From positions 67,850-131,849 of the forward strand of contig JAFLTC010000002.1 in assembly GCA_022510615.1 (NCBI GenBank): a stretch of 64,000 bases of DNA, written 5' to 3'. Within the stretch, counting starts at the first letter, position 1, and the number at the start of each line of letters is the position of its first letter. Shown one piece after another: positions 5,555 through 46,746 of the stretch. Made by a program: the position numbers and the translations under genes. Below the pieces are notes generated by a model. It was not told where the DNA came from and made no database searches. It saw nothing but the letters and a program-made list of their open reading frames with translations. Origin of the DNA: Lachnospiraceae bacterium (GTDB taxonomy: Bacteria; Bacillota; Clostridia; Lachnospirales; Lachnospiraceae).

Positions 5555-5974
5555 ATGAAGGATGAAAATTGTATTTTTTGTAAAATTTTAGCGGGAGAAA
5601 TTCCGTCAACGACGGTTTATGAGGATGATTCCTTTCAGGCCATTTTAGATGTCAGTCCGGCAGCAAGAGGTCATGTTATTATTTTGCCGAAAAATCATGC
5701 GGCAAATTTATTTGAGTTATCGGAAGAGGATGCGGCAGGCATTATGGTTGTGGCAAAAAAAATTGCAACGGCTGTCAAAAAGACCTATCAATGTGACGGT
5801 ATCAATGTACTCCAGAATAACGGGGAGGCAGCGGGACAGTCGGTATTCCATCTCCATGTTCATGTAATACCGAGATTTGAGGGCGACACCGATACGATTA
5901 ATATTGGTTGGAAGCCGGGAGAGATGCCGTTAGATATGGCAGCGATAGCAGATGAAATCAAAGCAAATTTATAG
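5555..5974 (+). CDS. HIT family nucleotide hydrolase
   Basis: CIFCKI and HLHVHVIPR motifs. Confidence 0.95.
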   Translation: MKDENCIFCKILAGEIPSTTVYEDDSFQAILDVSPAARGHVIILPKNHAANLFELSEEDAAGIMVVAKKIATAVKKTYQCDGINVLQNNGEAAGQSVFHLHVHVIPRFEGDTDTINIGWKPGEMPLDMAAIADEIKANL

Positions 5975-15114: not shown

Positions 15115-15197
15115 AAACAAGGGATACCATCTAATCGACTCAAACCGATAACGCTTCGCGTTAAAGGTTCTCGCTGATTGGATGGTATCCCTTGTTT
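15115..15197 (+). repeat. Dispersed structured hairpin element, copy 1
   Basis: AAACAAG-N11-AATCGACTC...AACGCTTCGCGTT...CTCGCTGATT-N11'-CTTGTTT. The same core recurs at 33026, 44419 and 44663. Confidence 0.9.
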
Positions 15198-33025: not shown

Positions 33026-33111
33026 AAACAAAAAGAAACCATCCAATCAGCGAAAACCTTTAACGCGAACGCGTTACCGGTTTGAGTCGATTGGATGGTT
33101 TCTTTTTATTT
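33026..33111 (-). repeat. Dispersed structured hairpin element, copy 2 (downstream of nfnB)
   Basis: Reverse complement of the copy-1 core with a covarying outer stem. Confidence 0.88.
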
Positions 33112-44109: not shown

Positions 44110-44394
44110 ATGCCTACGGAAGAAAAATTGTATGACCTTGCGGAGCTGTTTAAGGTTTTCGGCGATACGACAAGAATCCGTATTCTATATGAATTATTTG
44201 AAAAGGAAATGTGCGTGGGGGATATTGCCGATACGTTACATATGACCCAGAGTGCCATTTCCCACCAGCTGAGGGTATTAAAGCAGAATCGTTTGGTAAA
44301 ATTCCGTAAAGAGGGGAAGACCGTGTTTTATTCTCTGGATGATGACCATGTGCGGAGTGTGATAGAGATGGGGCTGGAGCATGTGATGGAGTAG
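44110..44394 (+). CDS. ArsR/SmtB (CadC-like) metal-sensing repressor
   Basis: LAELFKVFGDTTRIRIL, CVGDIA, QSAISHQL and DDHV...EH motifs. Confidence 0.92.
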   Translation: MPTEEKLYDLAELFKVFGDTTRIRILYELFEKEMCVGDIADTLHMTQSAISHQLRVLKQNRLVKFRKEGKTVFYSLDDDHVRSVIEMGLEHVME

Positions 44395-44418
44395 AGGTGT
44401 TGCCTGAAACAGTTTTGG

Positions 44419-44501
44419 AAACAAGAGAGATTAGTCAATCGACTCGAACCGGAAACGCTTCGCGTTTGAGGTTCTCGCTGATTGACTAATCTCTCTTGTT
44501 T
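44419..44501 (+). repeat. Dispersed structured hairpin element, copy 3 (downstream of the ArsR gene)
   Basis: Same 83-bp architecture and core as copy 1, with a different but complementary stem. Confidence 0.9.
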
Positions 44502-44662
44502 GAAACTATCAGGCGACACCTCTGCTTCATCACATGGCGAGATGGCTTTCCTGTTACTCTGTTTAGTAACGTCATTTTTTTTGTTCCAAGGAAAAGCTGA
44601 CCCGGCGGCGGATAGAGTTGTAAACTTTTGCATTTTTGTTAGCTGTCGTTTTAATAGTGTAA

Positions 44663-44747
44663 AAACAAGAAACATCCACTAACCAGCGAGAGCATTTAAT
44701 GCGAAGCATTACTTCTGCTCGAGTCGGTTAGTGGATGTTTCTTGTTT
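44663..44747 (-). repeat. Dispersed structured hairpin element, copy 4 (downstream of cadA)
   Basis: Core with compensatory changes (AATGC/GCATT, GAGCA/TGCTC, AACC/GGTT) and AAACAAG...CTTGTTT ends. Confidence 0.88.
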
Positions 44748-44799
44748 ATTTAAGCCTATCAGAAACGACAAACTCCAAAATGCGAAACTTTAATATTCT

Positions 44800-46746
44800 C
44801 TACCGCCGCCGGGTCAGCAGCATCCTGACGGAGTTCAGCACACACAGTAGCGCCACACCGGAATCGGCGAATACGGCAAGCCACATATTGGCAAGGCCAA
44901 AGAAGCTGAGTGCCATGATTCCGATTTTTATGACAAGGGCAAATATAATATTTTGTCTGGCAATAAATAGCGTTTGTCTGGCAAGGGATATGGATTCCGG
45001 AACGGCCATGAGGTCCGAGGTCATAAATACCACATCGGCGGCCTCAATGGCGGCGTCTGCCCCATCTCCCATGGCAGCACCTACATCGGCACCGGCAAGC
45101 ACCGGGGCATCATTAATGCCATCCCCCACAAACATAACAGCTCCCTTGTCGGAACGGACCTGTTGCAGACGTGTCAGCTTTTCCTCTGGGAGAAGCTTTC
45201 CGTACACCGTATCGATTCCCACCTTTTTACCTACGAGGGAGGCAGACTGCTCGTTGTCACCGGTCAGCATAACCGTATAAATGCCGTTTTGTTTCATTTT
45301 GCGCACTGCTTTTTCAGAGGTCGGTTTTATCGTGTCTGCCAGTGCAATATAGCCGAGGTAGATCTGGTCAGAAGCCAACAAAACGAGAGTTTTGTCATCT
45401 GATTTTATATTGTCCGGAACAGAAATTTTATTATCGATTAAAAGAGTACGGTTTCCGCATAAAATCTTTTTGCCATCTATTTCTGCTGAAAGTCCCTTTC
45501 CTGCCACCTCAGACAGTCCTGTAGTTTCCGGAGGAGTAATGTTTTTCTGATGGGCATATTCCATAATGCTCAGGGCAATCGGATGTGTGGAAGACTGTTC
45601 CATACCGGCAGCAAGGGTGAGAAGTTCTTCTGCTGTGGTTTCCTCGGCAGTTTCAATTTTTTGTACCGCAAAGTTACCTATTGTAATTGTGCCGGTTTTA
45701 TCCATGACAACGGCTTTTAGTTTCGTAATCATTTCAATAGAGGAACCGCCCTTGAACAAAATGCCTTTGCGAGAACCGGTTCCGATGCCTGCAAAAAAAG
45801 CAAGGGGAACACTGAGAACCAGTGCACAGGGACAGCTGATAACCAAAAAGGTCAGAGCAGTATAAATATAGTAGGACCAGTTTCCCGTAATCAGAGATGG
45901 CACAATGGCGGTAATCAGTGCCACCAGACAGACAATTGGTGTATAAATACGGGCAAAGCGTGTAATAAATCGGTCTAAATGCGGTTTGGATTCAGCAGCT
46001 TCCTCCACAGAAGTAAGGATCCTGCTGACCATGGATTCCGAAAGTGGTTTCGTAACACGGAGATGGAGCAGACCGTCCGTGTTGACACATCCGGATAACA
46101 GGGCGGATCCAGGTTCTGCTTTTATTGGAACCGGTTCGCCGGTAACCGGAGAGGTGTCGATACGGCTTTCTCCCTTGATCACTTCGCCATCTAATGGGAT
46201 GCGGTCGCCGGGACGTACTACGATACAATCCCCGACGACAGCTTCCTCTGCCGGAATCGTTTCAATAGAATCATCTGCCTTTATTTTCTGAACTGTTTCA
46301 GGACGCATGTCAACGGCAGCGGATATAGAAGCCCGGCTTTTATCCACCGCTTTATCTTCAAAATATTCGCCCACCCGGAAAAACAACATGACAGCGGCGG
46401 CCTCGGGGAAATCCCCAATACAGAAAGCTCCCAGTGTAGCCACGGTCATAAGAAAATTTTCGTCAAATAATTCTCCGTGAAAAATTCCCGTAACTGCATG
46501 GAATGCTACCTCCCAGCCAAGACACAGCCACGCCACCGCATAAAAAACCGGTGAAAATGGTATTTCCGGCAGGGTAGATATGTGCTCAAAAAGAAAAACG
46601 AGGACAAAAAGGCTGATGCCCCCGATAAAAAGTACTTTATCCAAAACCGGGTGTTCGGATTCTTCATGATGGTCGCAGCCGCAACTACAACCACAACTGC
46701 ATCCAGTATGCTCTTTTCCCTGATGATGTGTATGGGTATCTGACAT
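44800..46746 (-). CDS. cadA: Heavy-metal (Zn/Cd) P1B-type ATPase
   Basis: His/Cys-rich N-terminus. TGE, SCPCAL, DKTGT, HP and GDGINDAP motifs. Confidence 0.92.
   Translation of the reverse strand: MSDTHTHHQGKEHTGCSCGCSCGCDHHEESEHPVLDKVLFIGGISLFVLVFLFEHISTLPEIPFSPVFYAVAWLCLGWEVAFHAVTGIFHGELFDENFLMTVATLGAFCIGDFPEAAAVMLFFRVGEYFEDKAVDKSRASISAAVDMRPETVQKIKADDSIETIPAEEAVVGDCIVVRPGDRIPLDGEVIKGESRIDTSPVTGEPVPIKAEPGSALLSGCVNTDGLLHLRVTKPLSESMVSRILTSVEEAAESKPHLDRFITRFARIYTPIVCLVALITAIVPSLITGNWSYYIYTALTFLVISCPCALVLSVPLAFFAGIGTGSRKGILFKGGSSIEMITKLKAVVMDKTGTITIGNFAVQKIETAEETTAEELLTLAAGMEQSSTHPIALSIMEYAHQKNITPPETTGLSEVAGKGLSAEIDGKKILCGNRTLLIDNKISVPDNIKSDDKTLVLLASDQIYLGYIALADTIKPTSEKAVRKMKQNGIYTVMLTGDNEQSASLVGKKVGIDTVYGKLLPEEKLTRLQQVRSDKGAVMFVGDGINDAPVLAGADVGAAMGDGADAAIEAADVVFMTSDLMAVPESISLARQTLFIARQNIIFALVIKIGIMALSFFGLANMWLAVFADSGVALLCVLNSVRMLLTRRR

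Follow-up and report, generated by a model that had tools for sequence, protein, structure and literature searches.

Locus-specific antisense copies of gene ends beside a dispersed hairpin family in a Lachnospiraceae draft genome

We analyzed a stretch of 64,000 nucleotides (nt) of a Lachnospiraceae bacterium (GenBank assembly GCA_022510615.1, contig JAFLTC010000002.1, positions 67,850 to 131,849), hereafter called the window, and focused on two long palindromes that lie between the genes arsR and cadA. The genome, hereafter G000, is a draft metagenome-assembled genome of 2.1 Mb in 129 contigs, with 44% G+C and 88% completeness. The window corresponds to C42:67850-131849 of this genome, and coordinates given without a contig label are window positions. 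The two genes converge on a spacer of 405 nt, where each is followed by a copy of a repeated hairpin, hereafter the element, flanked by outer arms of which the distal one is an antisense copy of the end of the gene. The features of the locus are as follows.

44110-44394, plus strand: arsR-family gene (open reading frame; HTH_5 in Pfam), 94 amino acids, ending in ..EHVME followed by TAG (44392-44394)
44380-44407, plus strand: proximal (source) outer arm of the first palindrome, made of the last four codons of arsR (HVME), the TAG and 13 nt of 3' untranslated region (3' UTR), from the inverted-repeat search
44419-44501, plus strand: element copy 3, A-type, sense to arsR, with copy-specific 17-bp stems, an asymmetric core at 44436-44484 and a UUCG-type apical loop
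44509-44536, plus strand: distal (derived) outer arm of the first palindrome, an antisense copy of 44380-44407 with 25 of 28 positions paired, from the inverted-repeat search
44553-44582, plus strand: small 6-bp hairpin followed by T8, read from the sequence; it lies in the 59 nt that separate the two palindromes and may be what remains of an ordinary terminator
44596-44662, no strand assigned: distal arm of the second palindrome, with the antisense end of cadA (exact over 16 nt, 44596-44611), then diverged 3' UTR and B-type shell
44663-44747, minus strand: element copy 4, B-type, sense to cadA, with its core at 44684-44728
44748-44818, minus strand: proximal arm of the second palindrome, made of B-type shell, the 3' UTR of cadA, its stop codon (44800-44802) and its last five codons (44803-44818)
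44800-46746, minus strand: gene of a P1B-type heavy-metal ATPase (cadA-like; open reading frame), 648 amino acids, convergent with arsR

The arm pair of arsR (44380-44407 / 44509-44536) spans 28 nt and is 89% complementary in the inverted-repeat search. A first-pass annotation, made from the sequence alone, had described this pairing over 27 positions, with all deviations being G.U pairs, and the three mismatches are indeed G.U in the sense RNA. The arm pair of cadA (44596-44611 / 44803-44818) is 16 nt long and 100% complementary in the same search. It lies, as previously reported, in an imperfect palindrome of about 220 bp, whose arms measure 113 and 107 nt. RNA folding predicts a single long hairpin for each palindrome, of -107.8 kcal/mol for that of arsR (z = -15.4) and -124 kcal/mol for that of cadA (z = -14.4). 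A simple terminator scan of positions 44200-45000 flagged nothing, the elements included.

Palindromes are a known source of chimeric reads and G000 is fragmented, which would fit an assembly or amplification fold-back artefact, a concern already raised with the first-pass annotation. However, the 1.6 kb around arsR are identical in three independent public assemblies obtained from different samples, which were found by exact look-up of the ArsR protein. The arms are also diverged, with 75-89% identity and indels, unlike perfect fold-backs, and palindromes built in this way are also present at further loci and in another species. An artefact is thus exceedingly unlikely.

The elements of the window belong to a family of about 40 copies in G000 (BLAST and regular-expression searches). 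These copies are spread across more than 25 contigs, where they follow unrelated genes in either orientation, often as convergent pairs. We aligned 29 of these copies, which are also the basis of the arm and stem statistics given below. Their common part is a conserved and asymmetric core some 45 nt long, whose internal mismatches are fixed and whose apical loop is of the UUCG type. The 17-bp stem is specific to each copy: there are 29 distinct stems in the 29 copies, and they are 93% Watson-Crick. An A-tract (at least 6 A in 8 positions) precedes the stem in 24 copies, and a T-tract (at least 6 T in 8) follows it in 23. Elements of the A-type measure about 108 nt and those of the B-type about 150 nt, the latter having an extra conserved shell that is an imperfect palindrome. 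They are located 3-30 nt past stop codons, with the stop mostly 44-100 nt from the apex. Where the context is informative, the core is only sense to the adjacent gene in 13 contexts and only antisense in 2. A stable hairpin followed by a U-tract just 3' of a gene is the layout of intrinsic terminators, and the element is probably a dispersed terminator or 3'-end hairpin. Judging by the stems, the inner hairpin is clearly maintained, be it through selection or through frequent conversion over short distances.

The family is expanded only in G000 and in a sister species, hereafter G050, where a BLAST-type search gave at least 45 matches; the same search revealed traces in five other genomes of the genus. 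G050 is represented by a draft metagenome-assembled genome that is 94% complete, and its coding sequences are about 72-80% identical to those of G000. A search of 185,579 species representatives with the exact degenerate pattern of the core gave no matches, but this pattern is probably too strict, since the BLAST-type search did find the family in G050 and in the five other genomes.

To quantify the outer arms, we started at the apex of each copy and moved outward, aligning its left flank to the reverse-complemented right flank, and counted only the part beyond the conserved element. All 812 left-by-right pairings of different copies served as controls. The score is above all controls in 6 of the 29 copies, namely copies 3 and 4 of the window, C108_15655, C48_16781, C48_16992, and C86_48574, and it exceeds the 99th percentile of the controls in 8. 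Several others are marginal, and around 40% of the copies show no arm. Hence, flank-derived arms, which the first-pass annotation expected with each element, are a property of part of the family. The two remaining copies of the window, for which it had noted weaker extensions, are among the marginal ones.

15115-15197 (C42:82982), plus strand: element copy 1, A-type; the palindrome just reaches the upstream stop, and the outer arm is not significant (0.07 of the controls at least as good)
33026-33111 (C42:100893), minus strand: element copy 2, A-type; the stop is inside the palindrome, and the outer arm is not significant (0.11 of the controls at least as good)

Measured from the edge of the element, the length of the arms in G000 goes from 0 to about 60 nt, and arms of up to 135 nt occur in G050. 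The strong cases all run 7-30 nt into coding sequence. The palindrome of C48_16781, for example, takes about 30 nt of the coding end of a gene (gene A) to which its core is antisense. G050 has the same architecture at other loci, including one copy whose 135-nt arms duplicate 65 nt of the coding end of a deaminase-like gene. In G000, the stop codon is inside 5 of 16 element palindromes and inside 4 of 41 ordinary terminator palindromes, in the latter by at most 10 nt. As ordinary terminator palindromes rarely reach a stop, the length and position of the hairpin seem to matter. One hairpin outside the family (C75:91391-91529) also forms a palindrome, of 139 nt, with an outer arm over the last three codons and the TAA of the upstream gene.

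One could imagine that the arms are selected, because a long double-stranded RNA at the 3' end would sequester the stop region and link the end of translation to transcription termination, to processing by RNase III, or to the stability of the mRNA. This was one of the two explanations put forward in the first-pass annotation. It would fit the excess of sense cores (13 vs 2), the UUCG-type loop, the perfect covariation of the stems, the extreme stability of the predicted hairpins, the extension of strong arms into coding sequence, and the mismatches of the arsR arm, which are all G.U. The latter bias extends poorly to the family: G.U exceeds A.C weakly in the stems (48:28, p = 0.03) and not significantly in the outer arms (30:18, p = 0.11). 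The differences between outer arms consist mainly of transversions (76) and gap columns (60), with 48 transitions. Significant arms are missing in most copies, the arsR arm is missing in G050, and C48_16781 has an arm-bearing palindrome that covers the stop of a gene while lying antisense to it. Furthermore, elements are found 3-30 nt from stops, so that any extension of more than 30 nt must enter coding sequence even without selection, and arms are gained, lost, or remodelled between sequences that are about 98% identical (see below), which is faster than plausible compensatory evolution. The weak G.U bias, the transversions and gaps, the orientation of C48_16781, and the many copies lacking arms suggest that no need for pairing maintains the outer arms. 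Selection for a stop-occluding double-stranded RNA is therefore poorly supported, and we strongly doubt it.

The direction of the copying can be established from homologues. We recovered 80 metagenome loci (from human-gut metagenomes) encoding ArsR homologues with 70-79% amino-acid identity and inspected 33 of them, none of which has the element. The homologues end in ..EH[IV]xE followed by the stop. Since they share this C-terminus, the arm on the arsR side consists of ancestral coding sequence, which makes the distal arm the derived one. We also compared three pairs of filled and empty sites: the C108 locus, gene B of C48, and L148 of G050 against C41 of G000. The gene end is conserved in all three, and the filled site has the element and the arm together. 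The empty orthologous sites (G050 C67, G050 C48, and G000 C41) lack any inverted copy of the gene end and have, further downstream, an ordinary short terminator.

Mobile elements are known to insert into REPs or terminator hairpins, and the arms might accordingly be the old stems of long native terminators that extended over stops and received the element in their loops. Orthologous gene ends are occupied in both species, at times by different types, which suggests a preference for certain sites, and the B-type shell resembles an older palindrome layer carried along with the core. Yet the empty sites are at odds with this explanation, as their terminators are short and ordinary. Arms of 28-135 nt, in which up to 65 nt of coding sequence are copied, far exceed the stems of native terminators, and the palindromes of terminators lacking the element reach the stop rarely and by few nucleotides. 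We regard such an origin as very unlikely.

The arsR-cadA locus of G050 has both elements, and the one following arsR has perfect stems and no arm. The ends of cadA differ between the two species (..VFKRQ in G050 vs ..LLTRRR in G000), and each palindrome mirrors the last codons of its own gene. Two other orthologous gene ends, C38:21099 and C24:16583, carry elements of different types, B in G000 and A in G050, and the stop codon of the C24 gene is supplied by the B-type shell. The C-termini of cadA, arsR, and the C24 gene differ between the sister species exactly at the boundary of the element. All 12 B-type cores of G050 have a G-C pair in the inner hairpin where G000 has A-T, orthologous sites included, and this lineage-wide pattern implies that copies were re-installed within each lineage or homogenised by copy-to-copy conversion. 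Overall, the arms are locus-specific, derived, lineage-specific, and confined to sites that have the element.

Changes in arms on a short timescale were observed between C73:1016-3256 of G000 and C81 (L140) of G050, which are about 98% identical over 2.2 kb when other orthologues are 72-80% identical. This suggests a recent horizontal transfer, or possibly a binning issue. Among the 45 differing alignment columns, 37 are in the palindrome arms of the two elements present in the stretch. One outer arm, next to a stop, differs by a 17-nt indel and 14 substitutions within 38 nt, and the opposite arm has three changes. A tandem GC/AT change lengthens a stem by 2 bp, and the core and stems are otherwise identical. 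In addition, at one position where the left arms differ by A/G, the pairing partner some 130 nt away differs by T/C, so that an A-T pair is replaced by a G-C pair. Clustered changes that preserve pairing on such a timescale read as the signature of templated arm-to-arm copying rather than of compensation driven by selection. As a separate observation, C73 carries the only B-type core of G000 with the G-C pair typical of G050.

These comparisons also bear on whether an arm is made at insertion, by a hairpin-primed or fold-back mobility step that copies the flank in which the element lands, the copies lacking arms having lost them. Element and arm are present or absent together in the three filled and empty comparisons, and the strongest arms abut the element shell without a break. 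The different element types and species-specific cores at orthologous ends suggest repeated insertion or replacement, which could regenerate an arm, as at cadA. On the other hand, about 40% of the copies have no arm even though their stems are intact, the arsR element of G050 combines perfect stems with the lack of an arm, and the length of the arms is unconstrained (0-135 nt). The outer arms of C73 and C81 were remodelled around identical cores and stems, and hence changed without re-insertion, and the hairpin of C75 was extended in a similar way without belonging to the family. There is also no candidate transposase or reverse transcriptase. Y1 (HUH) transposases (PF01797) have no match in G000 (88% complete) and only a 48-position fragment in G050, and reverse transcriptases (PF00078, RVT_1) have none in either genome (88% and 94% complete). 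The part of the earlier proposal that stands is thus a process of the fold-back type, which the derived arms and the clustered changes support; that the arms are an obligatory product of insertion is probably wrong, and we find their formation at insertion rather unlikely.

Our preferred explanation, which we hold to be moderately probable, is that the arms arise by fold-back or template-switch replication at a long terminator-like hairpin and decay afterwards. During replication, the nascent strand would fold back or switch template at the palindrome, the opposite flank would be copied as its reverse complement, and the palindrome would extend outward. Purifying selection would clear the events that overwrite coding sequence. 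Only those using the gene end as template, and overwriting or inserting into non-coding DNA, would survive, which would account for the antisense copies of last codons and stop that are seen as arms. The arms would then decay neutrally by ordinary mutation, without being maintained. Replication fold-back itself is an inference, as are the lack of selection on the arms and the role of the core hairpin as a terminator. Two expected traces of template switching were found. The arms that exceed all controls are reverse complements of adjacent sequence centred on an inverted repeat, with the gene side ancestral, and the changes between C73 and C81 are clustered, confined to arms, and keep or raise complementarity. 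The small extension of the hairpin in C75, and the palindrome of C48_16781, which takes in a gene end regardless of the orientation of its core, also fit this explanation. The missing RVT_1 in both genomes and the missing Y1 in G000 remove the obvious enzyme-based alternatives, given the incompleteness of the assemblies. A direct repeat beside the arsR arm that could have served as the return point of a template switch was not significant (p = 0.13).

Several observations weigh against replication fold-back. The comparisons involve two draft metagenome-assembled genomes, with one genome per species. The arms occur only with elements, so that at the present phylogenetic resolution their formation at insertion is still compatible with the data. 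Ordinary terminators rarely include the stop, so that one has to assume in addition that the process favours very long hairpins located at stops. There is a weak overall excess of G.U pairs (48:28 in the stems), and the intact stems imply some selection on structure for at least the inner hairpin. The 38-nt segment specific to G000 in C73 (C73:2007-2044) is about 70% complementary to the opposite flank and has no other donor in the draft genome beyond a 15-nt shell motif. Finally, for none of the events did the reconstruction yield an extant donor with an exactly reverse-complementary sequence.

The occurrence of A- and B-types at orthologous sites, together with the base pair diagnostic of the species within each genome, leads to a bolder idea that we consider doubtful. 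The core of about 45 nt could be a transposase-less and self-propagating palindrome seed, which re-installs or overwrites itself at the 3' ends of the same genes and drives an outward palindromisation of its flanks, whatever they are. If this is true, such a seed would rewrite 3' UTRs, and sometimes last codons and stops, by the replication machinery alone. Repeats would then have a novel route by which to spread and to remodel gene ends.

Template switching is known to create reverse-complement copies and to extend quasipalindromes (PMC8794818, PMC5453318, PMC3820800), so the earlier statement that no comparable system was described does not hold for the mutational mechanism. In the Ripley and four-point models of this process (PMC5453318, PMC8794818, PMC3820800, PMC7202029), copying of the reverse complement perfects or extends the arms of inverted repeats, leaves clusters of substitutions and indels between close relatives, and can produce long perfect stems in a single step, as would be the case here. 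Known cases are mostly short corrections in reporter genes, in rRNA or miRNA hairpins, and in primate genomes, whereas in G000 and G050 one dispersed repeat family seems to seed the process again and again, with arms of 28-135 nt and the systematic inclusion of last codons and stop. The systematic capture of gene 3' ends by a bacterial repeat family was not found in the literature, and appears to be undescribed.

The family resembles REP/BIME, Correia, ERIC, and pneumococcal BOX/RUP/SPRITE-type repeats (PMC1590033, PMC3049150, PMC12306157) in that these are intergenic hairpins dispersed in tens of copies near gene 3' ends, likely co-transcribed, with the potential to act as terminators or mRNA stabilisers, and restricted to narrow lineages. 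It differs from them by the lack of a sequence or Rfam match, the lack of a Y1 (RAYT) transposase in G000, and a stem that is unique to each copy. We know of no report of locus-specific arms derived from the adjacent gene end in any of these families. Miniature inverted-repeat transposable elements have terminal inverted repeats, target-site duplications, and a related autonomous insertion sequence; the G000 element is a palindrome throughout. Eukaryotic fold-back inverted duplications (PMC3907307, PMC10622511) are similar in that a hairpin-capable repeat primes synthesis on the same strand and ends up at the centre. However, they are induced by breaks, extend over kilobases to megabases, and involve dicentric intermediates, whereas the copies in G000 measure tens of nucleotides and are resolved in place. 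Intrinsic (Rho-independent) bidirectional terminators share the A-tract, hairpin, and T-tract directly after the stop, but the element has stems of more than 30 bp with conserved internal mismatches, a core repeated across the genome, and a negative result in the simple scan. Finally, the coding palindromes of nematomorph mitochondria (PMC6649704) are also long inverted repeats that overlap protein-coding sequence. Their arms are both coding and inside genes, whereas the palindromes of G000 have a single coding arm and, at their centre, a repeat element located in a 3' UTR.

If correct, replication fold-back would make this family a natural genome-wide case of long bacterial hairpins growing by templated copying, with the gene end as one of the templates. 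It would join dispersed palindromic repeats and template-switch mutagenesis with the evolution of gene 3' ends, i.e. of terminators, 3' UTRs, and C-terminal residues. It also calls for caution. Perfect covariation in each copy and helices that embrace the stop can come from a copying bias at the DNA level, and they are therefore not, on their own, evidence for a functional RNA structure. The pair formed by G000 and G050 offers filled, empty, and remodelled alleles.

Other candidates were considered for the identity of the element. The window has no Rfam match at the gathering threshold and, by E-value, only sub-threshold matches to generic hairpins (miRNA precursors). No parent insertion sequence was recognised, BLAST revealed no longer element sharing the ends of the family, and target-site direct repeats were not evident at element boundaries in the 29-copy alignment, for which no formal search was made. 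The lack of a Y1 transposase in G000 (88% complete) led us to set aside mobilisation of the RAYT or IS200/IS605 type, and the lack of a reverse transcriptase in the two incomplete assemblies speaks against retroelement copies, i.e. self-primed cDNA of a terminated mRNA. Integron attC sites and gene cassettes were ruled out by the dispersed copies in both orientations and by stem ends that lack the core-site consensus (RYYYAAC / GTTRRRY); no search for IntI was made. Resemblance to hammerheads, tRNA T-arms, or domain V of group II introns was rejected by eye, as the consensus motifs do not fit. An invertible (phase-variable) segment was also rejected, the arms being specific to the locus rather than to a recombinase and the orientation of the core following the gene. 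At arsR, the possibility that the arm was inserted between the stem and a canonical right shell motif is ruled out by C86_48574, where the shell directly follows the stem.

Some additional observations concern the locus and the family. A SpoIIT gene adjoins arsR and, together with the occurrence of homologues in human-gut metagenomes, suggests a spore-forming Firmicute of the gut. At most homologous loci, the arsR-type regulator is directly upstream of the metal ATPase gene and co-directional with it, and the convergent arrangement is shared by G000 and G050. Long variants of the element have an extra hairpin of about 45 nt (..CTCGAAAGTGAGG..CCTCAC..) in the 5' half of the core, resulting in a two-hairpin form that resembles a three-way junction. 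In G000 they are found at the following positions.

C40:5598
C40:9817
C53:11223
C53:52476
C97:70495
C119 (~33549, reverse-complement strand)

Degenerate elements in which the apical core is deleted and the stems are kept, at G000:C108 (L098:229-300) and near position 5970 of G000:C61, are missed by motif searches. The A-type copy C13_7994 follows a tRNA-Leu(CAA) gene (G000:C13:8085-8168, L100:586-669) instead of a protein-coding gene. Between two elements of C108 (G000:C108:15510-15556, L098:311-357) lies a sequence of 43-47 nt with at least 10 copies in G050 contigs at 89-95% identity, which is another small repeat family and not a tRNA. The hairpin of C75 belongs to another hairpin family, which is not related to the element and has the core GAAACGTGTTC(C)ACGTTTAAA, found at G000:C75:91391-91529 and G000:C1:44682-44768. 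Lastly, G000:C35:27858-27965 is a perfect palindrome of 108 nt in coding-like DNA, with the appearance of either an inverted duplication formed very recently by fold-back or an artefact of the assembly. Its centre is a short AT-rich self-complementary motif that is also directly repeated just upstream.

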